From Folioceros fuciformis (lineage: Eukaryota): DNA of 51,613 nucleotides. How positions within the stretch are numbered: position 1 is the first letter of the stretch; every line of letters begins with the position of its first letter. Both the position numbers and the translations under genes were made by a program. Location: the NCBI GenBank assembly GCA_049999805.1, contig JBNGIO010005956.1, forward strand, positions 1 to 51,613, read 5' to 3'. The notes below the pieces were generated by a model, which did not search any database, was not told the DNA's origin, and saw only the letters and a list, made by a program, of their open reading frames with translations. This document shows, in pieces, positions 23,145 to 46,654 of this stretch.

Positions 23145-24675
23145 GGATTTATAGGCTTGTGTTTGCCGCATCCCAATGACAGGAATGCGATTCATGGCAA
23201 GCCGGCGGATATGTGTAAATTGGTGGCAGCCAGGATGAGGTGGATAAGGGCCAGTGTAAGCAACAGATCAGCCCAAGGGATTTAAGCGAGGACCTTGTAG
23301 TCGAGCATCGGGAAGGTGCATTTCTCGATCATTCAACAGATTGTAAGGCGCTGTAAGTCAGAGCGAAATCTACCCTTCCTTTGATTGCGATCGTCTGCAT
23401 CGTTTGCTTTCGTTTGCCCAGGGAGGATTTGCATGCTTGTGTTTGCCACATCCCAATAGCAGGAATGCGATTCATGACAAGCTGGTGGACATGTGTAAAT
23501 TGGTGGCAGTGAGGATGGGGCGGATAAGGGCCAGCGTAAGCAACAGGTCAACCCAAGGGATTTGAGCGAGGACTTTGTAGTCGAGCATCTGCAAGGTGCA
23601 TTTCTCGATCGTTCAACAGATCGTAAGCGTTATAAGTCAGTGCGAACCTACCCTTCCTTTGATTGCGATCGTCTGCATCGTTTTCTTTGGTTTGCAGATG
23701 GCAGGCCAATTGGACAACTGTCCACATTCCAGCTCAGCGTCTTCCTCCGTAACAAGGGATTACGTTCAAGTGGCAACAAATCAACGCTAATAACCAGAAT
23801 AAGCGAGTATCTCGAGCTTCGGGTTGGCCAGCAGAGAAAAAATGGTATGCAGCTGGTGCTCATGATTGATCTGGCCTGTAGATATCGTCACCTTAATTTG
23901 GTTGCGTCTTTCTTTGATCAGTTGCAATCTGGTGCCAAGTCGAGCTGGGTTGGAACTTGTTCTATCATGATCATGATTGGAGTTGTACTTGCAGGGACTG
24001 TGAATGTGGAAAACACACGCGAGCCGAGTCCGCCTAAGGTTAATTGCCAACGACGGCGTACGAAGCGACAGTTCAGGCGCCTGACAGATATCTACGCCGG
24101 TACCTTAAACATGCGCAAGCCCGGGCAAGGTATACTCCATCCCTTGTGATTGTGGTCATGTTGTTGCGAACGTTGGTCATATTGATGCTGGATGCGAACG
24201 TTCTTGTTTCTGCTGTAACAGTGTGTGTTCAGCGCAGCCACAACGAGAGGTTGACTGGAGCTTATCAAGTGTTCAGAGGTGCTTGCAGGACCTGAGGAGA
24301 CGCGTGCAGTTCCGGGAGCACGGAATGCTCAGGATACAAGTCACGGAGATCAGCCAGGCCATCGAAGTAAACGTTGGAAGCTGAAGGTTGATTTGAACAC
24401 CAAGGAGCTTGGCAACATTCTGGAAGGTCTACCCCTCCGTCTTGCTGTTGTCATCCACGCTGTGTTACGACAACGGCAGCTTCCTCTTGCTGTGGTACAC
24501 GTGCTCACCTCCCATCGTCGTCCAGTTCAAGAGCTGATGGCTTTTCCTGCTCCCAGATGGAGGTGCACGTACGTGATCGATGGACCACGAAGCAGCTTCG
24601 AGGAGGCAGTGGGTAGGGAATTGTTGGGAAAATACGGAGGGGAGAAACTGGACTGATGCTGCTGAAGTTCACGAG
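23145..24675 (+). pseudogene. Divergent copy of SAP-gene exons 2-6, with a 280-bp tandem duplication at its start
   Basis: SAP motif LSTFQLSVFLRNKGLRSSGNKSTLITRISEYL with the conserved AATG|gt donor, then RRLTDIY and TKELGNILE|gt exons and a cag|ATGGAGGTG exon. 23145-23417 repeats at 23425-23696. Confidence 0.7.
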
Positions 24676-24889
24676 TATGTGCATGCTTCATCCTCACTCT
24701 GTTTCATTGACTGTTTCTTGGTGGAACAGAATGCTCATCACACTGGTTTCAAAGCTACCAGCCGGCTAGAACTGAGGTTGTTGAATTGCCAAAGCTGCAG
24801 AATATGATGGAAAGTCACCACCATAAGAAGTCATGTATAATGGAAATCCGCCCTTCGTGGTACTCTCACGTCATATTCTGTTAAGTTTT

Positions 24890-25182
24890 ATGGCTTCGCG
24901 TAAAAAGCTGAGGCGCTTCGATTGTTGATTCGGCGTATCACGCCTGCCGCAAAGTTGATGTCGATTATCGTAGCAGCGATGGCCGGGAGCGGCTATGCGG
25001 AAGACGGTTCCCTGTACCCGTCCAGGGAAGAGCTACTTGCCGGCTTCTGGCTGAACATGGGGAAAGGAAGAAATGTTGCGGTTTGGTCACTTACAAATGC
25101 CGGTCATGGGTCGAAAGATGGTAGATGCACAGAAGAAGTAAAAGAATTCTATCACAGCTCACTAAGGACGGATTTCCATTAA
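24890..25182 (+). pseudogene. Unit B: LRR-like gene remnant
   Basis: KKLRRFD...IIVAAMAGSGYAEDGSLYPSREELLAGFWLNM matches 35380-35570 and 11120-11240. Confidence 0.45.
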
Positions 25183-25305
25183 AGGACTCGGGATAGATTG
25201 GACCTGGTGCATCCTGCTGGCTGTTCGACTGCTTTCCATTTCATGGTCCCGGCGCCATGGATGCTGCTGTCAGGAGTTTCGTGTTCTGTTCTGCAAGCTG
25301 CCGCG

Positions 25306-26296
25306 TTACCGCGAAAAGACTGAGTCGTCTGAGAGGTCCTTTGAGTCCTCTGCTCCAAGTTCCTACACAGCGAATCAAGACATATGCGCAGATATATGAG
25401 AAACGGAACAAGCAGAAAACAGTATGCAGATATCGACCCACCGTCAGCAGCGTTGTCGTGGCGTGCCACAGGGGCGCGACAAGTACTCTCTCTGCTCGAA
25501 TCCAACTAAAACAGAATGACCACTTGCACGTATGTGACGTGGCCCTGAAAGTCACCTGAATGAGCGAGATACAGTGGACATATATCTATATACATGCATG
25601 TGGCATGCCTAGTAGTAGTCGGACGAGCATGAGCCCCGCCCAACTTGCAAGTGTACCAAGTCTACATGAATTCACCAAGCTCTCCAAAGAAACTGCTCTG
25701 ATTGCCAACCTCCATCCTCCTGCCATCGGCCTTCTCGAGAATCTCCCTGAGAGCCCACAGCGTGGACACAATCCAGACCGGTCTGAGCGAGTTCGGAACT
25801 CAACCAAATGCGCTTCCGCCACGAGTTTCCTGGACAGCATTATTCCAACTAATCAAGAGCTATACAGCAAGATACGCACGTGGGTGTGGACGCCATACCT
25901 ACCGAGCACATCCCCGAATCACAATTGCACACAAACAGGAACATGCCAGTCCGGTTAACCTGCACCCTGCCGAAAATTATGGGATAGTCGCTGCCTTTGG
26001 AATGGCGCACACCATCTCCTTAAACAAGCCTTCCTGGGAAGCCAGAATGGGCACGTTTACCATGAATGCCACATCAAGACTACCACCACGGTCTTCCCAC
26101 TCCCGGGTTATCATATGTTCCAAGCTTTCAGTAACACTGTCCGAGGCGTCTGCGGCTGGCTTGGGCTTCACAGCCACAGCCCTGCCCCGATTTCCACCAC
26201 TACCGCCACCCAATTGCAAAGGCACAGGCTTCTCACTGCCATGTTGGGGACCCATCTGGTGGTGGGGTCCGCACGTCTGTTACTCTATCTATGTCC
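25306..26296 (-). pseudogene. Unit B: ULT-like SAND gene pseudogene
   Basis: AVAVKPKP...MITREW...FKEMVCA then a frameshift (premature stop at 25977); the LSPSAFEAHAG segment is deleted; SWRKRIW and LSDDS are retained. Confidence 0.8.
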
Positions 26297-27039
26297 CTGC
26301 ACATCACACATAGGTACAAGCTTGCATCCTCTGGAACCTTGTAACACACCTTGGCTTCCTGGTTGAATTTGGTGCCAAATTCCAGACTGAACGAGACAGG
26401 CAGGTACGAAAGTCTATGTGGAGTGACTCAGAGCATGAAATTGGCTTGATTTCGGGTTGATGCATCCCTGCTGGCTGCTCAACTGCTATTCCCTTTTCAT
26501 GGTGCAGCCTGCGAGCCACTGGATGTTCAATAATGACCTTCAACCCTAAATATTTGGATTTATATTTATTATGAGACTTTTATTTTATTTTTTATTTACT
26601 AACATATCGTAAATATTGTAACTATGACTGCGAAATAAAAGAAACTATTTTAAACGAAAATCTATATATATTATTTATAAATATGGTAGTTTAACTTTTT
26701 ATATTATTGGATCATTCATTTTTATTTCATATTTTTTCTTATGTTGCATATGCATTGCAACTTGGTTTCCAAAATGCAGAAGCTTATTTTTCTTAAAACA
26801 TATACCATCATGTGTTAATATTTATAAATAAATAAAATATTTACTGATATAGCATATTTCTTATAAATTATGAAAAATATGGCATTGCTCTAAAATTTTG
26901 ATAGAGATCATTTCCCTATTCATTTTGATTTATGAGATTATATATTAGTGAAAAAATTGAATGTGATATGTTTGTTGCATATAGCATTGTAAGAGTATGA
27001 AAGGGACTAAAGTCATTTGTGAGGTTATGTATAGTAAAA

Positions 27040-27330
27040 CTTACGGATTTGGCTTGTTTGTTGCAAACACTATTGTAAAATTGCAGAAGGGCTTTTTCAT
27101 GTCATTTAGGAGGTTACATATAAGTAAAATTGTCAGTGTGGCAAGTTTATTGCGAACACCAGTGTGGCAAGTTTATTGCGAACACCAGTGTAGCAAGTTT
27201 ATTGCGAAACACCATTGTAAAAATATAAAAGACCCTTTCTTCATTTATAAGGTTATATATTAGTAAAATTTGCTAATTTGACATGTCCTTGGCAAATACC
27301 GTTGTAAAATGAAGACCTTTTTCTCATTTG
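27040..27330. repeat. Nested tandem repeats in an AT-rich block (26-bp unit x3 inside a longer unit of about 95 bp)
   Basis: cagtgtggcaagtttattgcgaacac x3 at 27134-27215; aaaca/tac..ttgtaaaa...tcattt recurs around it. Confidence 0.75.
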
Positions 27331-27344
27331 TGCTATTTATGAGG

Positions 27345-27560
27345 TGTGCGAAGAAAAAGTTTGGTAATCGGTCTAAATTAGTCTAGGAAAGTTTAACTTG
27401 GTTCTTTTGGCTTAGGACAGTTCAAAGGGAGGCATGTAAAAGATAGGTTTTTAGGTAAGTGCTAAGCGGTTGGTGAAGGTTCCATTAGATTTGTTTAGTT
27501 CTATCTTGGTAGGTTAGGTATGTGATAATAGGACGAGGTATTACGCATCATGATAAGAAG
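27345..27560 (+). mobile_element. Terminal fragment of the gypsy-like family
   Basis: Matches 15321-15500 and the reverse complement of 47820-48018. Confidence 0.7.
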
Positions 27561-28649
27561 ATATGTACGTGCCCTCCAGTGGACCATGTTGGGCTAGAGA
27601 GCAATCTCGACCTCCACCATGGGTTTGGATGTGGGGTTCTTGCAAGAATCAACTGCTGTTAGCACAACCACCACTTTCACCATCTGCCGCTGCTCCAGGG
27701 TTTGCTTGCGCACCTCCACTACCGCCTAAACCCACTCCTCATAGCACCACGTTTCCTCAAGCCTGTCACGAGATGTCTGCTGTTGCCGAGCCCGCTGCCT
27801 CCTTCCTAATCACCTAGTTCAACTTGGATGCTTGTGTGTCCGTTTGCCCACAGTCCGATCCCGGACACCGCTTCAGTTGTGGTTGCGCTCCACTTCGAAA
27901 ATGCCCCCAGACACTTGGACTTCCCCTTAGGGTTTCCATCTTCCGAAAGCCGTTCCTGTTTCCATGACCTTTATTGGCTTCCACTACCGGTTGCTCCTTT
28001 TGCGACTGCCTTCCCCATTCCACAACCGACGTCAGGCTTTAACTACCTCCCTTCTCAGACTAAGCCCACACACAGACTGGGACACTCTACTCCTAGCTCC
28101 TAACACAAAATGACCCTACTATCTCTAGAATCCCCCCCTTATACATGCTTTTGCAAATTGTTCAAAGACCAAAGGCCAAGGAACAATCAACCCCTCTAGT
28201 TAGAGGACCAGTTATTGGTCAAACCAAACCCAAAACTAAAAACTCATAGGCCAAGAAACTTTTGAATATAAATACCTCGACCTACTCACAACTTGACTCT
28301 ATTTCACACCCAACTTAGCAAAAAAACAAAAAATCACTCTAGCATGCACCTTAGCAGGGAGTTCCTAGTTATCTGATCATTCACTATAGGCTCTCTAACA
28401 CGTGGTTTCATAAATGGGATGTCCTACATAGGGGTCTTCCCCTATAAGTACCTTCCTTACATATGTATCTTTTAGGCTAAATAATATAAGTATTTGCCTA
28501 TAAGTAGATGTTCTACACACCTAAATAGGTACCCTACTTACTAAGCATTTACCCTACATAGGTACTCTTCATATTATTTTGGGAATAATATTCAAAGGTG
28601 TTAGTCTCCGTTTTAGCTCTTAATTCTTTTCAAATTGTTCCTCCTTGTT

Positions 28650-29530
28650 TTGGTGGATGCATTTAGGGTCTTATTTCCATCCTCTTTACCTTTGGAGGTT
28701 CGTGAAGTATTACCTCTTTTCACCTTCTTTTCTAGACAAGGGTTAAGGAGTCTTTGGGCCTCTCTCTTGGAAAAGAAATATGGCTAAGCACTAAGAGCCC
28801 TTCTTTCAAACTTATCCATCTGCATGTCTTCTCAAGGGTCATATTCGCTCTAGATGTTTTTCAGGTAAAGGAGCGAGCTCTTAGCATTTGGCTCAACCTT
28901 GCATCTAGGCATTTCAAATCACACTTGCAACTTTTGCCACTACATAGAGATTTTACTTGGGTTTGGCTTACCCCTTGTCTTTTTCTCTCTTTGCATGCAG
29001 TTGTAGGATTGCCATTTTTGACATAGGTTCACATTAGCACATTGTCCCATTGGAGGCACCGTATTACCTCCATGATACACTTCGGGATGTCATGTTGTCA
29101 ATGGCTAGGGAATTTGGGTTTCTTTTGAATAGCGAGCATCCATATACTTCACACAACAAGGTTTAACTTAGAGTGGACCTTTTTTTTTCCACTAGGGGGA
29201 ACATGTTTGTGTCGCTGATGTGGCTACTATGAATTCTACTATGAATTTGATTTGCGAACACATTGTCATCAACTCCCCTAATTGGGTGACGAAGGGTTGT
29301 GCAAGTGCTAAAGGCCATAAGTATTCTCTATGTAGCACACTCATATTTTCATCCCCATTGCTTTTAAGACTCGTGGGATTATGGGCAAGGATTTTTCAAG
29401 GTTAATCAAGTAGTGGGCAAAGGTATATCATAGTAATAAAAATGGGGTTCTTCCTCTTTCTTCATGGTGGCTTCTTTCGATAACGCATATCCATTCTTTT
29501 ACAAAGAGCATTGGGTAAAATAATTTTTAG
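28650..29530 (+). mobile_element. CRE-like (RLE-bearing) non-LTR retrotransposon remnant
   Basis: Broken frames RFYLGL...CSCRIAIFDIGSH...HDTLRD and HIFIPIAFKTRGIMGKDFSRLIK; inverted homologue of 48550-49300. Confidence 0.55.
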
Positions 29531-30099
29531 AATAACAACAAGTGCAAGTCCAAGAACTTCTTAGGTACCGATGGTAGGTAGGCCTTTTACTATTTTATAT
29601 CATGATATTTTGGGAATGATAAGTAATTTTGAAAATGATGTATGAAGAGGCCAGTCTCTTTTAGACCCTGCTCTGTCTTACCTTCGGAGTAGCTAGAACT
29701 TTCTACAATAATTTTTTACCTTTTAAAATATACATCATATTTTTTCTTTCCCACTAGGTGTTGATAGATATGCCCTCTACAAGCCTCCCTAACCTGAGCG
29801 AGAGGCCTTTTATTCTCCGAGGCGTCAGTTGCAGGCTGGTTTTGTCCCCGTTTGCTCTACGGGCTTGAGTAGTGGTGCCTCTTTCTTTGTTTGCTCGAGG
29901 TGGGCTCCAGAGGCTTGAAGCGTTCCTGTCAGATAAGCATTGCGGCCAAGCACAATTGGGCCCGCTCCTTATAAGACTTTCGTGTTTCTAAGCTCATTCG
30001 GATTCGGATTCCTCTCTGTTCTTGCCCGGGAAGGGGAGCAAGTCCTTAACTACTGCCTCGATTCAGCATTCTGGTGTTGTGCGCCATACCACCGAGCTT

Positions 30100-32680
30100 T
30101 TCCCATCGGGCTGCGCTTTCGCCTCAATTTGAGGTACTTGTTTTGAATGCTGAATTCTGATTGTGGAGATACATGTTGTTCTGAATGTTGAATTCTGGTT
30201 GTGGAGATATTTGTGGGAGGTGATTGTGGGATCCGCGGACAGAAATGCGGTCCGTTGTAAGCTGGGTGTGAACTGTTGGCAATGACAGTGATGAGAGCCT
30301 CAACAGTGAAGGGAACGCTGCTGTGGAGGCTGGGCGCTTGGCCAAACCGCAAGATTTGAGTTTGTGGCGCTGTTTGCAAGTTTGGGGAAGGTTCATTCTC
30401 GTTCAAGCCACCATGAGGGGTTGCAAGAGCTCAAATCTGCTGTTCTTCTGATTGCCGATGGATTTTGGTTTGTAGATGGGAGGCCGTCTTTAGAGCTCTC
30501 CTTGTTGCTGCTCAAGATGTCTCTGCGGAAGGAGGATTGCAAGTGACTGGCAACAAGGAGGTGCTCGTTCAACGAGCTAAGGATCCATCTGAAGGTTGTT
30601 CCCCAGATCAAGAATGGCTGCCGCAATGGTAGGTACGCTCAGGCTTGCTGAGATCGTCACTTGAGGTGGTTTCGTTTTGAAATCTTCTGCGTCTGGTGCC
30701 GACACGAGAAGTTCGAGCTTGTCGATTGGTGGAAGTTGTGTTGCAGTGACTGAAGGCGGGAGCACGGACTCCTAATGATATCTCCAAAGGTGAATCCAAG
30801 GAGACAAGGAATTCGACGCTGACAGATCTCTACCCCAAGGAGGCGGGCAAGCCCCTGGAACCTCAAACCCGTCCTTGTTTGGTGTTGATATTGTTCTTCT
30901 TCTTATCGGTATGTGTGTACTGCTAACGGTGCTTCTTCTGCCTACGGCAATGTTTTCACCTGCCATCTTCCTCATGAACTGATATCAATCAGGCTTCTAT
31001 CCTCAGATGGAGGTGCGTTGTTGGAAGAAGAAGGGGACGAGGAACAGGAAGAAGAGGAGGAGGAGGAGCAAGAGATGGTGAGTGGTACACCCCAGAGGCT
31101 AAAGCTCCCTGATGCTGAGGTGTGCCAATGTGTTGCAGGTGCATGCTTCACTCTCCCCATGTTTTATGGTCTCTCTTTTGGTGGATCTGAATGCCTGATC
31201 TCGTATTCAGAGCATACACTGACCGTTCTCAAATGTGAAAGCTGCAGATGTTGGGGAGCTTGGAACGCTCCCGAGTCGTCAATTGAAATTGTATTTGAAA
31301 TGCAACAGAATGAGGATGTCTTGAATTGACGGGATAAAACTCCCAGTAACGTACTGCTATCTAGGCACTGCTGTTGAACGCATTGCTCGTTGTGACTTGC
31401 TGATAATTTAACTCTGACATTTGTTCGTGATCAGTTTCGAACAAGAGGGCTAAACCATTGTTCCCGAGAAAATCCTTCAGTATGAACTGCACAGCTGGTG
31501 AGCTGCCTTGCATTTTGGTTCCTGTATCAGGCAGGTGTGTGCAGTTCAGTCGCTGATATATTTCTTATCGGTTTCAGGAGACCTCTGCAAGGGAGACATC
31601 GGATGCAGCGTCCTTTTCCATCGAAACGTTTATTCGGAGTGTGTACATTTAGGCCGTTTCTCACCCCCAACCTGTTGTGGCTTTCTGATGACGTTTCCAA
31701 AATGTTTTTTTTTTCTGACGTGCTGCAGACAGCCCGTTGATTACCTGGCGGGGACATGGAGCATGGCGCCAATAGGAGTCCCAACAATTCCAGGCAGTGT
31801 GACTCACGAGGCATATGGACGAGACAAGCAAGTTAACACACCTTCAGAGTACGAACTTGTCCCAACCGACCGTAATGCTAGCTTGCCAGTTGCCTATCGT
31901 CAACTCATTCCGTCTTGTGTGCAATTCACAGATAGAGGTGCTGTGGACTTCAGGTCCACAACCACTTAGGGCCATGGAGCAATGACTCGAAAAGGTTCGA
32001 AATCTGCACAAGATACACACACTTCGGCAGGTACCTATTCTTCTGCTTCTTTATCCTCACCCCGCGCAAAACGCTCTCATACACGTTGCTTGCCTCTTTC
32101 CTTACCCATCATTGTGAGCTACTCATCAAGTACTTGACCATAATATGGTTTGGCATCATGAACTGTGTAGCCTTGGTGTGACGAGAAAGAACGGAAAGCA
32201 AAACTTGCTGAGAAGCACAAACGTGGGCCTGCTGCCCGTGGTGAGAGATCTCTCAGGGTGAGGCGTGCCAGAGACACCCATGGCATTCCCGCCTCACTCA
32301 AGATCCCCAAGGCGCACATGTAGACCCCGACAACACCAATACTAGAAGGACTGGGGAACAAGAGTACAAGGGCAGGCTGCCCCAGCAACAGGCGGCATTT
32401 TGGAACAATGGTCCATGGTCGCCTGCGCCAAATATCCTTGGTAACTCTTCCTCACCCTATGTACACAGGAGTGGGGAACACGTACAAGAACAAGGGCAGG
32501 ATGCCCCACTAACAAACAGCCCCTGATCACAAGGGAATAGTGGGGAAATTAACAGCCAGCCCCTGATCACAAAGGTAAAATGGGACAACAAGCAGACTGA
32601 TCACAATAGTATACGGAGGATTGTGGCACATGTCTCCCACGAGGTCAACGCCAGAGGCGTGGCCAGCGGAAGTAAGGAGG
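30100..32680 (+). pseudogene. Unit C: SAP/C3H62-like gene pseudogene
   Basis: Most exons are recognisable. SAP1 frameshift with a stop at 30544-30546, TGA in MEQ*LEK, TAG in the last exon, lost exon-2 acceptor. Confidence 0.85.
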
Positions 32681-33109
32681 GCTGGATGAGCAACATATCA
32701 CAAAACGGCACATCAACGAAACAAGCCATCCAGCATCTAGATCAGATGCACTGTCTAGCCTGCCGTCGACCCTCGAGCTCATCAGGTATAGCTTTGGTCT
32801 TGAGGGCCTTGTGGATGTTCATGTACGGCGGCCGGCGACTTTGTCGCTTCGCTGGTGTACAGCATTTTGCATGTGCTACATGCAGCAGTGAAGAAATTCT
32901 CTTCTCTAAGGGTTGGAGGTCGCGATGAAGGAGCCGATTGCAAGCTCAGCCGGCGGATGTTGTTAAGCTGTCAATGCAGAGTGCCGGGACAGCATTATGA
33001 ATATAATGACACGTTGTAAAGATGACATGTTGCTGCGGTATGGCAAGTATGCTCAGCCGTTGACGGAGGTGCCGAGCTGGCTTCCAAACAGATAATTTGA
33101 TGGAGCTGG

Positions 33110-36030
33110 AACTTACTGTGGGCACGAAGTTGGCTGGCCTTTAAATATGTATCTTTGATATGTAGATCCTGCTGACTGCTCGCCTAGCCTGTTGTGTGGA
33201 TTTCGAAACCCAGGGCATCTGTCCACCTGGTGTCATCGTTTTGCGATTGGCTAAAGCAGATCTGCCAGGCAGTGACTAACCACGATTCCTTGTGGGGTAT
33301 CTTTGAATATGGGTTCCACGATCAAAAACAGCAGGAGGCTTTCCGAGAGCAGGTGGAAGTCAGAACCAGAGTCCCAGATTTTTGTTCTCGTCTGCAGTCA
33401 TACATGTATGGAGCTCCGGAGCAGAGGACCCAGAGGAGCAATTTGAGCCATGGACGTGGTCTCTGCTTGTGGTTCCAAACTATACAGATAAGACGACTCC
33501 CAGTGGGATACATGGATCTCCTCAGTGCCTGCGCTGTGTCAAGATGCATGAACACCCATTGATGGGGATCCATCTCACTGCAGATATTCGTCGTCATATG
33601 AGTAGTCTGGAACAAAAAGAAAAACCATTTCATGGCCCCAATTTGCTCCTCTAGATCCTGTGCTCTGACTTTGCGACGGGGTTAGTAATCAACGATGAAA
33701 ACTGCACATCTACAGTGAGCCTTATCAATCGGTTGGGTCAGGCTAGCTGAGGCCCAGAGCCGGCTCCCCTCTGTTTGGTGGTGCAATTCGTGATGAGTCG
33801 AGCTGGGTTGGAACGTCTTCTATCATGATCATGTGTGGAGTTGTAGTTGCAGGGACTGTGAACGTGGAAAACACATGCGCGCAGAGTCCAGCTAAGGATA
33901 ATTGTGAACGCCGGCGTACGAAGCGATAGTTCAGGCGCCTGACAGATATCTACACCGGTACCTTAGACATGCGCAAGCCCGGGCAAGGTGTGCTTCATTC
34001 CTTGTGATTGTAGTCATATTTTTAATATTTTGATGCTGGATGCGGCCGTTCTTGTTCCTGCTGTAACAGTGTGTGTTCAGCACAGCCACAACGAGAGGTT
34101 GACTGGAGCTCATCAAGTGTTCAGACTCTGAAGTGTTTGCAGGGCTTGAGGAGCGCGTGCTCTCACGGGAGCACGGAATGCTCAGGATACAAGTCACAGA
34201 GATCAGCCGGGCCTTCCATGTAGACGTTGGAAGCTGATGATTTGACCACCAAGGAACCTGGCAACATTCTGGAAGGTCTACCCCTCCGTCTTGGTGTTGT
34301 TATCCATGCTGTGTTACGGCAACGGCAGCTTCCTCTTGCTGTGGTACATGTGCTCACCTGCCATCGTCGTCCAGTTCAAGAGCTGATGGCTTTTCCTTTT
34401 CCCAGATGGAGGTGCACGTACGTGATCGCGGGACCAAGAAGCAGCGTCGAGGACGGAGTGGGTAGGGATTTGTTGGGAAAGAAAGGAGGGAAGAAATTGG
34501 ACTAATGCAACTGAAGTTCGCGAGTATGTGCATGCTTCATTCTCACTCTGTTTTATTGACAATTTTTGGTGGAACGGATTGCTTATCTAGCTGGACTAGT
34601 CTGGACGGCATAATTGTTCTCTGATCCTCAGCAATCTCATGGTCACCAAGTGGAGTTGCTGATAGATGAAAGTGAGAGCTAGGCAGCAGCCATGAACCTC
34701 CGCTGTGGGCAGTGGAGGATAACATGGCAGAATGGTGACCCTATATCACCCCTCTTCGGCCGTTTGTCAGCCTAAGTACCTCCTCTGGCATGGCAGAGTG
34801 GGGGTAAAGTAAACTCTGACTGTCCAAAATAAACCATGACAAACAATTATATAACAGAAACTGAGGCGCATCGATTCTTCGACGAATGGCCATGATCAAT
34901 GCATGCCCGCTCTGCATACTCAGGCTTGCGCCAAAGGCGATGTGGGTTATCGGAGAAGCGATGGCCGGGAACGGCAGTGCGGATGACGGTTCCCCATAAT
35001 CGTCCACGAAAGAGCGGTTCCACACATGCAGCCCTTCAGCTTGCGCAAGATAGCCTCTACCTCTGAGCTATGTAGTCCAGTGAGATTAGTTGAAAACGAA
35101 AGCGGAAGGGTTGAATCTGGCGGAGCGTTCGGCATTTACTTACGTTTGGCCTAGCTCACCCCTCTTCTACCGCTTGTCAGCCTACGCACCTCTTCTGGCA
35201 TTGCAGAGTAGTGGTGACGTAACCCTGACTTGCTCAGGAACGGTTTCCAAAAAATACATGAAAACCCACTTCACAGACACAGCATGTATTCGTCGTCTTC
35301 GGACACGATCCCAGTTCGCTTGGCGCGCAGGTCTCCCTCCTGTGTGGTCCCTGCACGCGATCGTCCTCTGAACCTTAACAGCCGAAACTGAGGCACTTTG
35401 AGTTTCCGCCGAATGGTTCTTGCTCAACGGATCACCATTCGCCTTATCGGGCATGCGGCGAAGGCCACCTCGATTGTTGTAAAAGCGATGACGAGTAGCC
35501 GCAGTGCAGACGATGGCTCCCTACACTTGTTCAGGGAAGAGCTACTTGCCCGCTTGTGGTTGAGCATGAGGAGGAAAGTGGAGAGATGCTTGCACTCCGA
35601 GTCCGGAGATCACTGCAATGCTGTCTTGAAGAACCTAGATCGATATCCAGAGCCGAGCCGTCCGCTTGCGTTAGATCCCATCAGGTCTTGCCACGCAGAT
35701 GTTCTACCGCCCCTAGGTAGACTGACTGCATTGCGAACCTGAGTAGTGTGGATTGCTTTGCTTCCAATGACAAGACTTTTGTGCAGCCTGTAATGCTGTG
35801 CACTCAACCACGGGTAGAAGCACGAGCTCACTTGTGTTGCGCGGGAAGGTCATCGAGGAAGCTTTATTTTTCTTGGATGCTTTGAACACGTGGTTGGAAG
35901 ATGAGGCTAGCAAAGTTGTCCGTTTGGTGGTGGCCAATGCGCTGCCGCCTTTTGCACCTATTACTGCAGCGGTGAAAACACTCTTTCCCAAGGGGAGCAA
36001 GGTCGCAGTGAGGAGTCTTTTCTAAGGTAC
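33110..36030 (+). pseudogene. Unit C: decayed (F-box?)/LRR-like gene with embedded SAP-derived exons (33795-34525)
   Basis: QICQAVTNHDSLW; LRR-like LTPLLPLVSLRT, PKLRHFEF and LPPLGRLTALRT; internal duplication 34740-35020 vs 35155-35540; numerous stops. Confidence 0.45.
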
Positions 36031-36462
36031 TTGCGCAACAGGACAGGAGTTATTTTATTCCGGGGGGATCGTATCAGCCGGCCGCTGTTGTTCAATTGTC
36101 GAAGGAGGTGCACAAGGCGTTCCTATGTTGCAGAGTCGAGCATGAATTTATGCCTACTTCTTTCCTTGGTAGTCTATGCGGGACCTCTAGAGTCTTGAAT
36201 ATTATCTCAGCCGAGTGTATTGCCCCATCACACACCAGGTGTTGCTGCTAAGCTGAAACTTCTCCTACATAAGAAGGAAAAGGGAACAGCCAGGGCCATG
36301 CCAAGGGATCGCTCATGTTCCAGTGGTCACCGGCGCCGGAAATCCGAGGTGGCGCCGCAAACCTCACCACTGCTTGCAGGATTCTTGAAAAAGTTTCTGA
36401 GAATGGAATGATCTACTTATAAACGACCTGCCCTCTTGCAAAACTCTAGCTACATCCATGAA

Positions 36463-37780
36463 TCACTCCAAGTCTTCGTCGTTGTCGGAATCGTCGGAAA
36501 GCAGGAGATGAAAATTGCGTGTTAGCTCCGATTGCTCGTCTGAATCTTCTGTTGCACAAACCGATTCAATATGTACACGTGAGCACACAGATGTATGAGA
36601 AACGGAATACGCAACTGTGTGCAGACGCTCACCCACCATCAACACAGTTGTCGTCGAATGCCGCAGGATCGCTATTAGGGCTCCCTTTCTGCTGCAACAA
36701 GACAGAATGAACACATAATGTGAGGTGTGCCGTAAGTCAGTTAAACGAGGAAGATGGAAGCTGCAGTGAACATACATATGCAGGCAGCAGGCCTGGGCAG
36801 ACGTGCATCAGCTGCCCAATTGCAAGTGTACCGAGTCATGTGTTCACCAAGCGCTAAAACACAGATTTTGCCCACCTTCAGCCACTTGGCCTTCTTGAAT
36901 AACTCCTTGAAAGCCTGCACTTTGGATGCAAGGTAAAACCGGTCCGAGCCGCTGGAGAGCTTCACCCATATGCGCTTCCGCCACGATTTCTTTGACAATG
37001 GCACAAAACCAGCGTGTGCCTCAAAAGCACTAGGACTCAACATGCGCCCAGCTGGTCAGGACAAATTTTCAGCAGAGCTGAGATCAGCCGATGGTCTCAA
37101 ACGAATTCATGCAACCTCATGAGAGCGATTTCTATTCACACTACAAGGATGCTGCACAGCATAACAACTCTAGAGTTGTGCAACAAGATACACAAATGGG
37201 TCTGGACGCCATACCTTCCGAGCAGGTCCCCGGAGCACACATGCACGCAAACAGGAACTTGCCAGTCAGGTAAACCTGCACCCTGCCGTAAAGTATGGGA
37301 CATCCGCTGTCTTTACAGCCGGCGCACACCATCTCCTTGAAAAAATCATCATCGGGACCCAGAATCGGCAGAGTTCTCATGGATGCCGAACTCCTACCAC
37401 GCTCTTTCCACTCCCGAGCTATCGTCTTCTCCAAGCGTTCAATAACACTGTCCGATGGTTCTTCAGGTGGCTTGGGCTTAACAGCCACAGCTTTGCCCCG
37501 ATCTCTGCCACTACCGGCACCCAATTGCACAGGCGCAGACTTCTCAGGGCCGGCGCCATCTCTGGAACCGACCTTATCGCAGTCCGCACGAACCGTCGCT
37601 TCATCTGTGTCCCTGCACATTACACAGGTACAGGCTGGGATCCCCCGACAGCCTGCAACACAACGCGGGCCGAGTCCATTCATTATCAGCCAGCTGCAGG
37701 TCAGCTTACCAAGGCAGTTTCCAAGGCGTTTGCCGAGGAATGCTTTTGGATCTCTTTCCTTTCCCACCCCGAGGTATCAT
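36463..37780 (-). CDS. ULTRAPETALA-like SAND-domain protein, 5 exons, 261 aa, apparently intact
   Basis: Exons 37780-37710, 37612-37215, 37051-36876, 36691-36637, 36548-36463; all introns GT-AG and in phase (786 nt). Core EMVCAGCKDSGCPILYGRVQVYLTGKFLFACMCAPGTCSEAGRMLSPSAFEAHAG...KKSWRKRIWV parallels the ULT1 SAND domain. Basic N-terminus and acidic tail. Confidence 0.8.
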
Positions 37781-38029
37781 TGCTTAAGCAAAGCAAGGTA
37801 TATGACGTCAGACCTACGAAGAGAAAAAAAATCACTGAAATGTTAAACAACACGGAAGCTGAATGGGCACCGTGTTGAAGCTGAACGCACCCTTGTCGAT
37901 CTAACCCACAACTTCCAACTTTTAGCAAATCCAGAATGACGAGCTTTCTACCTTCAACAATCTAATCTCGAGGTCGTTTAAACAACTATGGCTTGAAAGA
38001 AGCTCATGACCTTCGCATTCGAACAAAGT

Positions 38030-38180
38030 TCGCAAACACCGTTTGTGCAAAGCTCACAACCTGAGCACTTGCACGAAATTCACAAGGACTGCTTGCGCAA
38101 AGCTCACAACGACTAGAGCGCCCACACGAATTGCGCAAGGACTGTTTTTGCCAAGCTCACAATGACCAGGGTTTGCAAAG
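38030..38180. repeat. About 52-bp degenerate tandem repeat x3 between the divergent genes
   Basis: aagctcacaa and caaggactg recur; aagctcacaa sits near 38050, 38100 and 38153. Confidence 0.7.
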
Positions 38181-39050
38181 GCTGACACCTACATCAGCTT
38201 GTACAACAAGCTTGGAACCACTGTAGCTTGCACGGAGCTTATACCACACTGACAAAAAGCTGACATGTCTACTTGTCCACAAAAGCTCTTAACAACTATT
38301 TGCTAGAAGCTTAAAAGATGATCATACACAACTAAGTATATATATAGTTAGGGTATCTTTGATCAAACAATCACTATTAAGGTTCATCTTGCTCAAATTA
38401 TTTTATTATTATATATTTATTTGAAGAATTTTATCTAATATTTATATTTCACATAATATGACAAAATATGAAGGACCATCACATTTCAATACAATGAAGA
38501 TCACTAAAAATCACACATAAAGTAACCACATAGACTTGAGAATATGTTATATATTAATATTTGATCCAACCAAAATGAAATTAAAATCGTATCATAACTT
38601 TTGAAGTTCAACTAAGCATAAAATTCATAATGAACTAACTTTCAAGCTATATTGTGACTGATAGAGTTTAAAGTTAACTAACTTGATTGAACTTCTTATA
38701 AATAATAAGGATATATTAAATTTCAAAGCTCTTCAAATATATAGATATTGGTACGAGCAACAGTAATCTCCCATCCATGTGAGAGACGATCTGGAGTGTG
38801 AAGTGGTATATTCCGTACCATTCAGACGACGACGGGTGTGCCAACTTACAATGGATGTTGGTTGTGCTCAGAGGAAGGCGGGCGGGACTCTTGCCCGCGA
38901 CTGCTTTCTATGTTCGAAACCGCTGGCCCTGTGAATTTGAAGGGCTAGCTGTCCGAAGCTCGATTGCGCTAGAGCTTGTAGCCTGACCTTGGGAATTTCC
39001 ATTGTGCTGGAGCCCACGTCAGGAAATCTGATTGTGCGACAGACCTGGCA

Positions 39051-42000
39051 ATGCCTACCACGAGTGGGAAGCAAGGCACCAATCCGCCAACGAAGCAGCA
39101 ATCGCAGCCATTGCCTTCAGATGTGATCGATTTGAGGTACGCGTCGTGAGTGGTGAATTCTGATTATGGAGATTTTATGGGTTGAGTGCGGGATCCGAGG
39201 AGCGGAGTGCGGTTCATTGCAAGCTGGTGGGTGGTTGTGATTTGGCAGCAGTGACAGTAGTGAGAGCCACAGCAGTGAAGAGGACGCCGCTGTGGAGCAT
39301 GGGCACCGCCCCAAACCGTATGACCTGAGCGAGGGCCCTATTTGCAAGTTCGTGGAAGGTGCATTCTGGTTCAAGCCAACGGGAGGTGTTGCAAGAGCTT
39401 GAATTTGCCGTTTTTTTTTAAATTGGTGAGGGCAATGATTTGCTTTGGTTTGTAGGTGGGGGGTCGCCTGCAGAATTGTCAGCGCTGCAGCTCAAGGTGT
39501 TTCTACGGAAAGAGAATTTGCCATGGACTGGCAACAAGGACGTGCTTCTTGGAAGAGTTAAGGAGCATCTCAAGGTTGTTTCGCAGAATGGCAATGGTAG
39601 GCAGCTGATGCTCAGGATTGTTGAAATTTTCAGATTGATGAGCAGGTTTGGTTGTGAATTCTGTTGCTTCTGGTGCCGAGACGAGAAGTTGGAGCTTGTC
39701 AATCAGTAGAGGTGGTGTTGCAGTGATTGTGAAGGCGGGAGCACGGACTCCTAATGTTGTTTCCAAAGTTGAGTTTCAGAAGACGAGAAATTTGAGGTTG
39801 ACGGATTTCTACCCCAAGGAGACAGGCAAGCCTTTGGAAGGTCATACCCATCCATGTTTGATAGCCATGCCGTTGATGTTGTTCTTCTTCTTGTTTGCTG
39901 TTGTAATTGTTCATCACAGCGAGATGTTGGACCTTGTTTCTCACTGGAGGTGTGGTTGCAGAGACTGTGAAGGCGGGAGCACGGAAAGCTGAGGATGCTT
40001 TCAGTGTTTTTGATCAACCTCCACGCAAACGGTTGAGGCTGACGGATTCCAACCCCAAGGAAGTTTGCCAAAACCTGGAAGGACCCCCGCTTCCTCCTGT
40101 GATGGGTATGTTTTATTACTAGGACTTCTTCTTGCTGCGGGTATTGTTTTCGCCTGCCTTCCACTTCAAGTGATGGCGTCAATCCCCAGATGGAGGTGTG
40201 TTCGACGGAGAAGAAGGGGACGTGGAGGAAGAGGAAGAGGAGGAGGAAGAGGAAGAGGAGGAGGAAGAGGAAGAGGAGGAGGAAGAGGAAGAGGAGGAGG
40301 AAGAGGAAGAGGAGGAGGAAGAGGAAGAGGAGGAGGAGGAGGAGGAGGAAGAGGAGGAGGGGCAAGAGATGGGCGATAAGACTCAAAGGCTAAAACTCCC
40401 TGATACTGAAGTTTGCCAATATGCGTTAGGTGCGTGCTTCACTTCTCTCCCTGTTTCATTGACTCTCTTTGGTTGGATTTGAATGCCTGATCTCGTGTTT
40501 GAGCATACCTTGACTGTTCTCAAATGTGAAAGCTGCAGATGGTGGTGATCTTCAAAGGCTCCGAACTCGTCAATTGAAACTGTATTTGAGACAGCACAGA
40601 ATGAGGATGTGTGGAAGTAAACAAGAAATCATTAACCGGATAAAACTCCACGTCAGGTGCGTTTCTCCTATTGAACAGCTTGATCTTTGTGACTTGCTGA
40701 TAATTTCACTCTGACCGGTGTTGGTGATCAGATTAAAAAACGAGGGAGCTCAAGTATTGTTTCCGATTACTTCTTTCACTATCAACTGCACAGGTAAGCT
40801 GCCTTGCATGTCCTTTTCTGTATCAGGCAGGTATGTCCAGCTCAGTTGCTGATACATTTCTTGTCGGTTTCAGGAGACGTCTGCAAAGGCGACATCGTCC
40901 TTTTCCATCAAAATGTTTATCCAAAGTGTGTACATCTGACCGTTTTCACCGGGAAGCTGTTGCGCCTTTCTGATGGACGACTCGTGAATGTTTTTTTTCT
41001 GACTGATGTGCTGCAGAGACTCCTTTGATTACCTGGCGAGAACATCAAGCATGGCTCGAACTGGAGTCCGAACAGTAGCAGGCATTGTGACTAAGGAGGC
41101 ATATGGAGCTGACAAGCAGCAACACACCTTTACTGTGCGAACTTGTCCCTACTAACTGTTGGATTGCCAGTTGCCTATCATCACTGATTCCGTCTTGTGT
41201 GCTACTCTCAGATAGAGGTGTTTTGGACGTCAGGTCCACAACCACTGGGGGCTATGGAGCAATTACTCGTGAAGGGCCGAAATCTGTACAAGATACACAC
41301 ACTTCGGCAGGTACCTTTTCTTCTGCTTCTTTATCCTCACCCAGCAGGAAATGCTATTATGTAAGTTGCTGCCTCTTTCCGTATCCGTCACTGCTCTCTC
41401 TGAGACAATGTGCGTTACTCATCACTTGAAGGTAATACGATGTTGCATTATGAACTTTGTGCAGCCTTGGTATGACGAGGAAGAACGGAAAGCAGTTCTT
41501 GCTGAGAAGCACACACGTGGGGCTGTTGCCCGTGCTGAGAGGTCTCTCAGGAGGGGGCGTGCCAGAGACACCCGTGGCATTCCAGCCTCAACCAAGATCC
41601 CCAAACCCAACAAGACCCACAAGATCCACACGACCCACAAGGCCCCCAACACCCTCAAGAGCCCCAAGACCCAGAAGACCCCGACAGCACCAATTCCTAG
41701 AAGTGATGAGGAACAAAACTTCGAGCGCAGAGTGCCCCAGCAACAGACAGCGTTTTGCAACACTGGTCCACGGAGCCTTGCAACAAATATCCTTGGTAAC
41801 ACTTTCTTACTCCATGCCCACAGTGGGGAACAAGAGTACAAGGGCAGGCTGCCCCAGCAACAGCGAGCCCCTGATCACAAGGATCTCTTGGGGCAACGGC
41901 CAGCCCCTCATTACCATGGTATGCTGGGGCAACAACGAGTCCCTGATCACAATGGTATACAGAGGATTGTGCCAGATGTCAGTGGTACCCCTTCATTACC

Positions 42001-42160
42001 CCATGCCAGCAGGAACTATGCAATTAGATTCCCAAGACAAAGGAGTGGGACATGCCGTACCCCTCGCTGCAAGCAGGAGCTCGCAAGGGGTTGCCTCTTT
42101 CACAGTTGTGGGAGATGTTGCCCAAGAACCGGATGCCAGAGGCATGGCAAGCGGGGCTAA
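39051..42160 (+). CDS. SAP-domain protein of the plant C3H62/At5g66840-like family, 12 exons, 660 aa, apparently intact
   Basis: Exons 39051-39136, 39249-39358, 39456-39596, 39724-39840, 39962-40105, 40190-40429, 40539-40656, 40732-40793, 40874-40925, 41017-41134, 41212-41310, 41465-42160; all GT-AG and in phase (1983 nt). Two SAP motifs and the family signature SFTINCTGDVCKGDIVLFHQNVY...RTVAGIVTKEAYGADKQQHTFTIEVFW...KGRNLY...RQPWYDEEERKAVLAEKHTRG. Confidence 0.85.
40225..40359 (+). repeat. GAG/GAA coding microsatellite (45 consecutive Glu)
   Basis: Mostly an 18-bp unit gaggaagaggaagaggag within exon 6. Confidence 0.95.
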
Positions 42161-43580
42161 CCGGGGTCCGGATGAGAAAGATATCCCACCATGGAACATC
42201 AATGTAACACGTCATCCACCATCTACAGCAGCTGCACTGTCCCGCCTGCGCCCGTCAACAGGTATGGCTGTATCTCTTGGGAGCCTTACGGATGTACAGC
42301 TCCTGCCCAGTCTGCATCCAAAATCTTTGGTGGTGGCTGATGCAGTGAACTCGGTGAGGAGAGGAGAAGCACGAGGGTCGTGTGCTGCGCAGCGCACGAC
42401 CAATTCTTCTTGCGGTGTTGAGTTGGAAGATGGGCTGGTGACGTGTCTCTTCGGTTGTGTACAATGAATGCGCTGTAGCGTTTTGCATATACTGCAGCGG
42501 TGAAGAGATCCTTCCTTCCTCAAGGGGATGGAGGTCGCGGTGAAGGAGCCTGTGCAAACTCAGCCGGCGGATTTCGTCAAGATGTCACTGTGGAGGTTAC
42601 AGCGTTTCTACTGTGCGGAGTGGAACTCGAACTTGTGCTACACCTGTGTGGTTACGTACGTGGTCCATGTGAAACTCGTTCGAGCTTCTTGAATAGAACG
42701 GCCGTGAGACATCGATGTTGAGTGCTGAATGATCATGAGTGTTGAACGAGACAGATTTGCTCCGAGGATGAAAACAAAGTCCCATTCTTTGGTGTCTGCT
42801 TGTGGAGTGAGCAGGACGTAAAGTGGCTTAATCTCGTGATTGATGCATCCTGCTGATTGCTTGACAGTTGTTTGCCGTTTTGATCATCTCGGCACGGGGC
42901 TGTGAGGAATTCATATGCCGTATGCAAGCTTCTTCAAAGCTACAAAGTGGGCCAAGAAGGCACCTTGCGTTAGAACACTTCCAGGTCTAGTTTAACATTT
43001 TTGGCACGTGGGTCACATCTCTGAGCTCAAGTTTCCTAATGACATAGATTATCTGTTGCCGGAAGCCGAATCGTCTCTGACAACGTGTTTGCTTGTTCGA
43101 AGACAGTGCTGCGTATGTTCATCAAGGATGTACATACTTCCAAGGCCGTGGGGAAGTATGAAGCTTAAGGGGCGAGTCGCTTGATGCGCTGGGGGAGTCC
43201 CAGCACACAGTAATCCTCAGGTTGTCAAACAGATATTATTTTGTAGCCCAGCAGAACGTCGGGTTGCATTCTCCCACCTGTTCCAGACCTCGATCTTGTT
43301 GCAGGTCCATATTTTTATGCTAACGTGGAATCTGGAAACTCCTTCTGGTTCACTTTCCGACAAGGATAACTGCAAGTGGTCCTCTATCTGGCAGGATGCA
43401 CATGGCATCTTATCTGTACGCGTATCTCCTGAACAGCTATATCTACAGTAATATGACAGAAAAAAATCATTTTGAGCAACTGGACGTGCTAGCTGCATGG
43501 CGGCAAAATGAGAACTGTGATATTGAGGACCACCCAGTGATCTCGGGAGTGATTGTGATTGTGAATCGGGAGTGATTGTG

Positions 43581-44503
43581 TCACTCCCAATTCTCCTCGT
43601 CATCTGAATCGTCCGAAAACAGGAAAGGGAACGCACGTGGTGGCTCCGATTCCTCCTCTAAATCCCCTGTTCCCACAAACCGAATCACATGTGTAATGTG
43701 GGATCATGCCTGAAATCTGCAATGTGCTGACTAACTCTCGACATGCTTCAATTCTTTAAGTTGCAATCTACAATCAAAACTGAAATGTCATGCATGTGTC
43801 CCACCATCGGCATTGTCGTCTATTGCCGTAGGCCCACCGTTCTCTCTCTGGTGCAAGACACGATGAGAACAAGTTAGGTGAAAACTCAACTTAACAGGGA
43901 ACCTCAAACATCAGACAGCAGGAATATATGCACGCGTAGGCACATATCCGCCCACCTTGAACCTCTCGGCCCTCTTGAACAACTCCCTGAAAGCCCTGAC
44001 TTTGGATACATTGTAAAACCGACCTCTCGTCAGCTTCACCCAAATGTGCTTCCGCCAAGACTTCTGTGACCGTGGCACGATATCGGCATGTGTCTCGAAG
44101 GCGGTACCACTCAACGTGCGTCCAGCTTATCACAAACCCCTTCATTAACACTTCGGCCCAGCTTCAGCAGGATGCATGAGAGACCGACATCGACTCACAC
44201 ACTCTGACTGGATGTACATATATATGCTGCAAAATCGCAGCCTTACAGGACTGCGGGTATGCAACAAGCAACACGTATGGGTCCCGACGTCATACCGTCC
44301 GAGCACGTCCCAGGAGCACACGTGCATGCAAAGAGAAACTGGCCGGTCCTGTGGATTTCTGCTTTCCCAAAGGTTACTGTATTTCCGCTTCCTTTAGCGG
44401 CGCACACCACTTCCATCAAAACCTCATCGTCGTGCGCTTTTGACACCCACGGCGCGATGGGTGCCATACCTTTGCATCGTTTCTCCCATTCCCGGGTGAT
44501 CAT
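43581..44503 (-). CDS. Unit D: ULT-like SAND-domain protein, at least 4 exons, open frame, start uncertain
   Basis: Exons 44503-44296, 44125-43956, 43847-43805, 43666-43581 are in phase; LSGTAFETHA...KSWRKHIWV; tail AFPFLFSDDSDDEENWE*. An in-frame stop near 44598 limits upstream extension. Confidence 0.65.
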
Positions 44504-46654
44504 CAGTCCCACAATGTTATCCCTCGGTTCCGCGTTGTCGACGTGGATTTCACCCGACAGCGCGGCAATTGTCAGCGTCTCCTTCGAATCTTGTCTTTAC
44601 CACTCGGAAACTCTTTCATACGCTAAACCTATTGTGAGACTAGTTCTGCTTGTGCTAAGCCTGAACTACCCTTTGTGCTATACTATGATGTGGCTCTTCT
44701 TTCTCCTAAGCTCAGAACACTATGTGCTCCAATTAACATCCAGACAGCCAGACCGGGATGAAAAAAGAAAAAATCAAGAAATTTCATGTATTGTTAACAA
44801 AGGGTATAACCCCGATGAAACTAGTACAGGACAGGGAGAATTTCTAAACTCCTCACTATCACTAATCTTACTACTGGCCACATATAGCTCAATTTTGTTG
44901 CTCCACCTTTGGTAACTAATACAATTCCATTTAATAAACTGATATAAAACAACGTATGGTGACGAAAGGGGTTTGTCTCAAAAGCTCGTCTTGCACTTGG
45001 GTTATCACATATTTACAATGCATGTGTTAAAAGGCAATCAATTCAACTTGATTCATTAGGATTGTGAGTGTTGATGCATTGGAGTTTCTTGCCTTTTCTC
45101 TTTCTTGGAATTTTAGTATGTACTGTATTTGAGTGGAAGATGTACTACATGTGATGAATAGCATTGGAGTGTAAGTAGGAGAATTGGTTCGTCATCCAAG
45201 CTCTATGAATCTAACCTTTCCAACAAAGGGACAATGATGTTGTACCTAATGGGTTGTAGACAAGGTTATTGTTTGCAGCAATAGGATCAAAAGATACTTG
45301 CTGAGGTGAGGCCCTAGGGGCGTTCAAATATAAAGTGTCCAAATGTTCCTCATCCTAGGTGGGTCCTTTGCATTGAAAAAAGCACATTGCTTTCCACATC
45401 ATGAGTTGTTGGCATGGAGTGCTATGTTTGCAGCCCCTACTCAGCAAGAGCAAGGACAAGAGGCCTTGGGGAATTTATCAGCACACGCAAGGGGAAGGAG
45501 TGACAGCTAATGCTCGCACTTTTGTCAATGTTCCCCAAGTTGGTGGCAAGGCAAGGGCCGTACGGGAAGGCTATCGGGTTCATGCTCACGTTGAGAATAG
45601 CACATTTGGGGTCAATATGCGCAGCAGGGGGATATCGTTGTGACTATGCCCCAGCTCGACGAGGATTTGTTGGAGATGCTATTGATGATTTTGTAGGGGG
45701 TAACTAGTAATGAGTTTGATGATTTGTAGGGGATAACTAGCAATGAGTTTCAAAAGGCCGGTTGGCAAGCCCTCATAGATCAAAGTTAGGGTTAGGTTCT
45801 TGGCGGGAGTTAGGGTTAGGTTCTAGGCGAATGTGAGAAAGATTTTTGAGCGTGTGACTGATATCGGCCCTGGTAGGTTGTGATGGGGGGTTCTTGGCCA
45901 AGATAGTATAAGGGGCTAGTCCTGCCATTTAGGAGGGGGTAGTCCTTTGGTGTGATTCCCCTTTGCCCTGCGTGCATGCTGCTAGATTGGGATGCTGGTA
46001 TGGTGTGAGTGTGTTGTATGGGCTTGATCCCCTAGCCACTAAGAGGGGATCCATGGTCTGCTAAGATCTGTGTGGCCAGATCCGAGGCTGTGGGCCCTTC
46101 TTGCTTGTTGGTTGAGGTGCCTTGACGTCCTTGGGGGGGTTTCCAAGGTAAGGGTTGTTGGGCTGTGAGCCAAGGAGGCTATCTAGCCCAAGACCTCACG
46201 TCTCTACCTTAAGGCTACAGGTGGGAAAGCTGCTGTGTTGCAAATTCTAGGAGCTAGAGAGTTGTGTTGCGAATTTCAGGGTGCTGAAGTGAGGAGTTGA
46301 AGTTGAAGAGGTGGAATAGTGAGTCTAGGAGTACTTTTTCAACTGCTAAGGTAGCTTGTGCATGCATTAGGAATAAAGTTATGGGGTTAGACCTAACTGT
46401 TGTAGCTATTGTTAAGGCTGGGCAGGGGATGATAGGTAGGATAAGGTTAGCATGTTAGAATAGCTTAGGTTGACTGCCCTGGCACGATATCACTCCCTTG
46501 GGAACGAATCTTAGGACTGCAACGATAAGAGGGTTAATGTAGGCCTCTTGGTGATCCTTTGGCCAAGAGGGTCACTCCACATTTGTACTGCTCCATTTGC
46601 AAATCTAAGGGATAAGCGTGCTAGTAGGTGCAATGTTTACCAATCTCTAGTGTG

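Follow-up and report, generated by a model that had tools for sequence, protein, structure and literature searches.

A probable SAND-only family of the ULTRAPETALA type with an acidic C-terminal tail in a tandemly duplicated locus of Folioceros fuciformis

ULTRAPETALA1 (ULT1) of angiosperms is a trithorax-group-associated factor that carries a SAND domain together with a Cys-rich B-box-like region. One published account connects the B-box-like region of ULTs with binding to other proteins and, for OsULT1, with the formation of multimers (PMC7947857), and another reports a TPxxFE core as perfectly conserved among plant ULTs (PMC4349709). According to a third source, land plants have only two SAND architectures, ATX-type and ULT-type, while the RegA/VARL proteins of volvocine green algae are single-SAND proteins whose lineage-specific tandem clusters expand and decay (PMC10137558). 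We analysed a stretch of DNA of 51,613 nucleotides from Folioceros fuciformis (contig JBNGIO010005956.1, positions 1 to 51,613; hereafter the window), in which the original prediction, made from the letters, had proposed a lineage-specific family of ULT-like proteins with a SAND domain and an acidic tail and with no B-box-like region. Our literature searches returned no description of ULT-type SAND proteins in which an acidic tail replaces the B-box-like region. On the evidence given below, the two intact genes at this site, copies C and D, probably encode a divergent SAND-only variant of the ULT type; we do not file them as members of the ULT family because the Cys-rich end is absent and the TPxxFE core is altered.

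Copies C and D resemble ULTRAPETALA1 and 2 of Arabidopsis and OsULT1 of rice in being small proteins with a single SAND domain that appears to be of the ULT subtype, with SAND_ULT1 (PF23292) as the top Pfam family. The two copies share with ULTs the pattern C-x-C...xPxxFE-H-(A/S)G...W-basic...(I/V)WV. In contrast to ULT1, ULT2 and OsULT1, the window proteins have no Cys-rich B-box-like C-terminus and carry an acidic tail in its place. Their TPxxFE core is altered and each piece of the domain scores below the PF23292 cut-off. With RegA/VARL, compared here by description only, they share a single SAND domain in a tandem cluster; they differ in that the SAND domain of the window is predicted to be ULT-type and that the generic Pfam SAND model has no match on the window pieces.

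Copy C is an intact gene on the minus strand (36463-37683) with four exons and three canonical GT..AG introns, and its joined exons (783 nt) form an open frame of 260 codons. Exon 1 (37215-37683) starts at the ATG 37683-37681, the first in the frame of the SAND domain, and encodes about 112 residues of low-complexity N-terminus followed by the N-terminal half of the domain, ending in CAPGTCSE at a phase 1 donor, G|GTATGG. The gene had originally been extended to 37780, but the ATG at that position was rejected as the start, as it lies out of the SAND frame and its linkage would require an intron of 16 nt. Intron 1 (37052-37214, 163 nt, GT..AG) is predicted and splits the domain between approximately profile positions 48 and 52; its model is based on the splice signals, the frame, the identical site and phase in copy D, and alignments to a distant locus that cross the junction (see below). 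Exon 2 (36876-37051) encodes the C-terminal half of the domain and then a basic, helix-like stretch, RFYLASKVQAFKELFKKAKWLK. After intron 2 (36689-36875, 187 nt), exon 3 (36637-36688, 52 nt) encodes an acidic linker, and after intron 3 (36549-36636, 88 nt), exon 4 (36463-36548) encodes the acidic tail FHLLLSDDSDNDEDLE at 36513-36466, which is followed by the stop codon TGA (36465-36463). A cluster of Cys residues, CVAGCRGIPACTCVMC, was also observed in the N-terminus of copy C (37615-37662, minus strand); part of it is kept in pseudogene B (…CVMCRD) and copy D has none.

Transcription was assessed using contigs of one public run (X1), not registered as RNA, that were placed on positions 25001-45000 of the window, with 40212-40369 skipped as a repeat. 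Run X1 represents spliced RNA of the same organism, since identity to the window is 99% or higher for 21 of the 22 placed contigs and each of the 14 listed joints has GT..AG borders, which read as CT..AC at the two joints of minus-strand copy C. The joints 36688|36876 (CT..AC on the plus strand, hence GT..AG on the minus strand) and 36548|36637 connect exons 2, 3 and 4 of copy C with the frame kept on both sides of exon 3; of the two acceptors in a CAGCAG pair, intron 2 uses the distal one. RNA depth is above zero in the bin 37007-37673, which overlaps exon 1, and the word depth of the joined contig is low, approximately 2.3. The run contains no joint for intron 1 or for copy D and gives no cover on copy B or above 37674, blanks that are evidence neither way. 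The spliced product originally proposed is thus confirmed by RNA at introns 2 and 3 and has an open frame throughout, while intron 1 is a prediction.

In order to assign the domain, the contiguous pieces of copies C and D were scanned exon by exon with Pfam PF23292 (95 positions, cut-off 25 bits), and E-values refer to all 24736 families of the library. The N-terminal half in copy C (37216-37368, minus strand) gave 16.2 bits (E 0.014, profile 13-48) and exon 2 gave 14.1 bits (E 0.067, profile 52-81); in copy D the N-terminal half in exon 1 gave 18.1 bits (E 0.0038, profile 8-48) and exon 2 (44125-43956, minus strand) gave 13.3 bits (E 0.11, profile 52-82). PF23292 is the top Pfam family in all four pieces, and in both copies the two halves follow each other in the order of the profile. 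Added together, the halves reach 30.3 bits in copy C and 31.4 in copy D, with every single piece below 25 bits. As the E-values are library-wide, the chance that a second, independent exon matches the same family at such a level is about 3e-6, and the pieces taken together would be strong evidence for a PF23292-like domain although each is below the cut-off. As controls, the exon-1 ORF of copy D is the only PF23292 match at E<=0.01 among 140 six-frame open reading frames (ORFs) of at least 85 residues in the window, and the family has no match among 73 short ORFs on the minus strand downstream of the copies or on the N-half ORFs of pseudogenes A and B. The elements of the ULT-type SAND pattern originally described were located in both genes, at 37266-37216 (TGKFLFACMCAPGTCSE), 37040-37008 (LSPSAFEAHAG) and 36992-36963 (KKSWRKRIWV) in copy C and at 44347-44297, 44114-44082 and 44066-44037 in copy D. 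The K-S-W-R-K stretch stands at the position expected for the KDWK-type basic Trp motif of SAND. A six-frame motif scan found T-G-x-F...C-x-C in copies C, D and B, AFE-x-HAG in copy C alone and W-R-x-x-I-W-V in copies C and D.

Relatives were sought in large protein collections. A word-indexed search with exon 1 of copy C, limited to candidates of 85-273 residues, returned 32 candidates, none at E<=0.01, and one with the exon-2 alignment, directed at longer proteins, returned 86, none at E<=10. The exon-2 alignment was also run exhaustively with HMMER against 1.84 billion representatives and gave no true relative; its two matches at E<=0.001, a multi-PAS sensor kinase of 2101 residues and a protein of 258 residues with an internal repeat, were rejected as repeat artefacts. 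The same alignment had no match at E<=10 among PDB sequences, and the IS110-type transposase clusters that the ESM Atlas returned for exon 2 (126-129 of 256 features shared) were judged to be noise. A retrotransposon ORF of the window likewise finds relatives of at most 34% identity, from environmental sources. The collections probably lack the lineage of the source organism. The empty searches are consistent with the proposal that the family is lineage-specific but are weak evidence for it and do not prove it.

A pattern scan of metagenomes gave 361 matches and, from these, one confirmed and distant locus, L001, in which a gene (2857-3961, plus strand) encodes two tandem SAND-like domains. 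The two ORFs score 22.8 and 31.2 bits with TDBD, 20.5 and 22.6 bits with SAND (cut-off 22) and 22.5 and 19.8 bits with SAND_ULT1; the scores of 31.2 bits for TDBD and 22.6 bits for SAND lie above the respective Pfam cut-offs. Three models matching one C-x-C...SPxxFE-H-x-G...W core indicates that TDBD, SAND and SAND_ULT1 overlap. The window proteins share with TDBD proteins and L001 the core C-x-C-x(2-4)-C...LSPSAFEAH-x-G...K-x-W. The two domains of L001 are contiguous and, in contrast to those of the window genes, uninterrupted by an intron at the site of intron 1; PF23292 matches L001 only from profile positions 37-39 on, whereas its match to the window proteins includes the N-terminal half of the profile. 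Using phmmer, the spliced products gave 19.0 and 15.7 bits (copy C) and 15.6 and 12.7 bits (copy D) against L001, and these alignments cross the junction of exons 1 and 2, which supports the model of intron 1. L001 was chosen by means of an exon-2 pattern, and only the extension into exon 1 counts as independent evidence.

BLASTN of the copy C region against the window found exactly three more copies, at 66-75% identity, all on the minus strand. Copy D (43581-44503) is intact: its predicted exons (44503-44296, 44125-43956, 43847-43805 and 43666-43581) encode 168 residues, with intron phases as in copy C, and end in the tail FPFLFSDDSDDEENWE at 43631-43584. Copy A (about 12288-13181) is a pseudogene with two stop codons and no ATG ahead of the ORF for the N-terminal half of the domain and with a frameshift and two in-frame stops in exon 2; its tail, FPFLLSDDSDDVGELK, is intact and ends at 12288. 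Copy B (about 25321-26354) is a pseudogene with stops and frameshifts in exon 1 and a tail cut to LSDDSVFSR near 25321. It lacks the DNA equivalent to 36998-37162 of copy C, a gap that covers intron 1 together with the LSPSAFEAHAG-coding beginning of exon 2. All four tails of the original prediction are present, the tail of copy C ending at 36466; the prediction had missed that copies A and B are pseudogenes and that a larger, multi-gene duplication is involved. Judged by their reading frames, the family at this site is two intact genes and two pseudogenes. The tails of copies C, D and A share F-x-[F/L]-L-[L/F]-SDDSD followed by acidic residues, and the stop codon lies at an identical aligned position in the three.

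Selection between copies C and D, a check proposed at the outset, was measured by Nei-Gojobori counts over 167 aligned codons. The synonymous and nonsynonymous differences (pS 0.559, pN 0.242) correspond to dS 1.03 and dN 0.29 and to a dN/dS of 0.285. By region, dN/dS is 0.24 for the SAND part (74 codons) and 0.11 for the tail, where 16 codons make a small sample. Since the copies are old and both frames are still open, this argues for function over much of the history of copies C and D.

Several observations weigh against a ULT-type assignment of two functional genes. No piece alone attains the 25-bit cut-off of PF23292, and the generic SAND model, PF01342, is unmatched at E<=10 by any piece of copy C or D; the ULT-type SAND domain originally claimed is supported by the preference for PF23292, at a level below the threshold. 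The TPxxFE core is changed to SPSAFE in copy C (within 37040-37008) and to SGTAFE in copy D (within 44114-44082). Intron 1, the 5′ end of copy C and all splicing of copy D are predictions that RNA does not cover. Half of the SAND family, judged by its frames, is dead. The DNA similarity of copy D to copy C ends at position 37354 of the latter, and copy D, which has no counterpart of about 110 N-terminal codons, may be a truncated copy.

A further point against the assignment is that TDBD (PF16135) comes close to PF23292 on exon 2 of copy C (12.9 versus 14.1 bits). TDBD is a domain of PHD/acetyltransferase proteins, IDM1 among them, and the domain of the window could belong to this wider plant group, marked by C-x-C...SPxxFE-HAG, or be a generic SAND domain of the green lineage, the preference for PF23292 then being an artefact of the profile. 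The L001 core, matched by TDBD, SAND and SAND_ULT1 alike, and the loss of TPxxFE from copies C and D are what would be expected if this were so. However, the TDBD match spans just 12 residues (profile positions 16-27 out of 52), lies below its own cut-off of 23.6 bits and is restricted to exon 2 of copy C, with none on exon 2 of copy D or on the two N-terminal halves, which are matched by PF23292 alone over profile positions 8-48 and 13-48. The W-R-K-x-I-W-V stretch would also follow the KDWK position of SAND and not the continuation of TDBD. We consider membership of the wider group unlikely, although it is the most serious of the alternatives, and prefer the ULT-type assignment.

Alternatively, the array could be a decaying, lineage-specific duplication with no function, in which copies C and D have simply suffered the least damage and are transcribed as noise. 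Two pseudogenes among four copies, the 5′ truncation of copy D relative to copy C, the RNA word depth of about 2.3 and the lack of relatives in large protein collections would all be compatible with this. Against it, 167 codons with a dN/dS of 0.285 at a dS of about 1 contain no stop or frameshift in either copy, the RNA is correctly spliced, and the tail and the position of its stop are kept in three copies. We therefore consider decay improbable, more so than membership of the TDBD group, and retain the reading of copies C and D as ULT-type SAND genes under constraint.

The absence of a Cys-rich B-box-like end, as originally claimed, was upheld. The stop codon of copy C lies within exon 4, which is joined in RNA to exons 2 and 3, and it is at an equal aligned position in copies A, C and D. 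The final 45 residues of copy C contain a single Cys and 16 Asp/Glu against 2 Lys/Arg, while the SAND domain has 11 Lys/Arg against 4 Asp/Glu. None of 73 minus-strand ORFs of at least 28 residues downstream of the four copies matches B-box in Pfam. The sole zinc-finger family found among them is zf-CCCH_tandem, at noise level (E 0.13), on an ORF (42831-42986, minus strand) that is antisense to an RNA-covered plus-strand exon. A Cys-rich minus-strand ORF downstream of copy C (35867-36049, 6 Cys in 40 residues) has no Pfam match, and a scan for Cys-rich windows flagged none on the minus strand of its counterpart in the third duplication unit (42422-42551). A block of 0.8 kb (23923-24739 and 33782-34587) that is 87% identical, among the best conserved between units, contains Cys-rich plus-strand ORFs and is covered by RNA in unit 2. 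It was rejected as a hidden B-box exon, as its mismatches are spread evenly over codon positions (30/27/25), its gaps break the frame and it is on the wrong strand; it could be an untranslated region, a non-coding RNA or the result of recent gene conversion. That the gene models are incomplete and further exons would add a B-box-like region, making these ordinary ULT genes, is suggested by the unfixed 5′ end of copy C (RNA depth 0 above 37674 in the single run), its N-terminal Cys cluster and the ORF at 35867-36049, but is very improbable given the shared stop in an RNA-joined exon, the lack of a Pfam match or a flagged counterpart for that ORF, the 73 ORFs with no B-box match and the absence of the Cys cluster from copy D.

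If copies C and D are ULT-type SAND-only genes, how might their proteins work? Copy C, and probably copy D, would be a small regulator of nuclear type with a disordered N-terminus, a SAND domain, a short basic stretch and an acidic end. The SAND domain would bind DNA or chromatin through K-S-W-R-K at the KDWK position, and its conserved residues C-x-C-x4-C...H may coordinate zinc. The tail would replace the Cys-rich B-box-like interaction region of ULT1 and recruit a partner. The proposal that the tail is an activation or docking motif is plausible from its letters, and the best fit would be a SUMO-interacting motif (SIM) enhanced by phosphorylation, or failing that an acidic activation or docking motif.

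Phospho-regulated SIMs are known from PIAS proteins and from the C-terminal SIM of Daxx. The tails resemble these, in letters only, by a hydrophobic core and a subsequent run of Ser, Asp and Glu in a CK2 context at or near the C-terminus of what would be a chromatin-associated protein. By a published definition, the hydrophobic core of a SIM is four residues long, of which three or more are hydrophobic, and has on its flanks acidic residues and Ser that CK2 can phosphorylate (PMC12751080). The cores HLLL, FLLS/PFLL and PFLF, each followed by SDDSD, fit this letter pattern. They differ from known phospho-SIMs in a way that counts against the proposed role, since the tail core has Phe, His or Pro at positions for which Val, Ile or Leu is preferred in SIMs. 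Because the hydrophobic core directly precedes Ser and Asp in a CK2-type context, the SIM-like reading is tentatively ranked first, at well below even confidence. An acidic activation motif or an F-x-x-L motif of the ATG8 type fits the letters of the tail equally.

Comparison of the window with itself showed a tandem segmental duplication in which the repeated unit, about 7-8 kb long, contains several genes and is 66-89% identical between copies. The units lie at 19000-26350, 30180-37660 and 39150-44430, with an older, fragmentary unit around copy A (10350-13190). The SAND gene forms the right end of each unit, on the minus strand and convergent with a plus-strand gene, and each unit also contains RNA-supported spliced genes on the plus strand. 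The SAND genes arose by tandem duplication of this unit, and two of the copies have since decayed. The plus-strand genes (38857-42984 and 30388-32169) have 12 RNA-supported GT..AG introns and a large exon of 0.8 kb with no known domain. Two plus-strand ORFs that resemble SAP domains (39422-39706 and 23499-24146), at 23.5 and 22.2 bits against a Pfam cut-off of 23.9, were duplicated together with the SAND genes. Introns of the window are 77-187 nt long with GT..AG borders, and its GC content is about 0.41-0.52 (approximately 48%). Searches of the window gave no Rfam match and no tRNA gene.

Other features were noted around these genes. In the divergent intergenic region of about 1.1 kb between copy C and the next plus-strand gene, a 53-bp tandem repeat of 2.4 copies (38043-38166) may be a shared promoter element. 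A CT-rich low-complexity repeat (39751-40389) is located within the region of the plus-strand genes; read on the minus strand, it gives stretches of Leu and Phe. Remains of mobile elements include a fragment of a long interspersed nuclear element (LINE) with RNase H and zf-RVT matches (13791-14621, plus strand), whose ORF is the one with environmental relatives mentioned above, an ORF with a DUF7869 match (17378-17821, minus strand) and a coiled-coil-like ORF of 545 residues (4712-6346, minus strand) with flanking repeats that recur at 15.3-16.5 and 46.7-48.0 kb. The LINE, which is of plant type, the short introns and the GC content would suit a green plant whose genome is compact.

The importance of these genes is limited by the fact that both their assignment and their function are read from sequence. 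A more speculative proposal, which we hold to be a long shot, is that genes of the C/D type represent a ULT-type SAND lineage of a non-flowering green plant in which the B-box-like region was either lost or absent from the start, and that their tail is a CK2-primed SUMO site. If true, ULT-type SAND would extend beyond the reported range of the family, given as 'angiosperms only' or as 'ferns plus seed plants', and plant SAND proteins would be tied to SUMO-dependent chromatin assemblies, in parallel to Sp100, an animal SAND protein found in PML bodies. Since each exon piece matches weakly and below the cut-off, catalogues of transcription factors that depend on thresholds would miss such genes. 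In copies C and D, an expressed and constrained family would appear to keep a ULT-type SAND domain while exchanging the Cys-rich region for a short acidic-hydrophobic motif. This would mean that new partners can be connected to the SAND module, and the family would be a compact natural system in which binding of DNA or chromatin can be told apart from the recruitment of partners.

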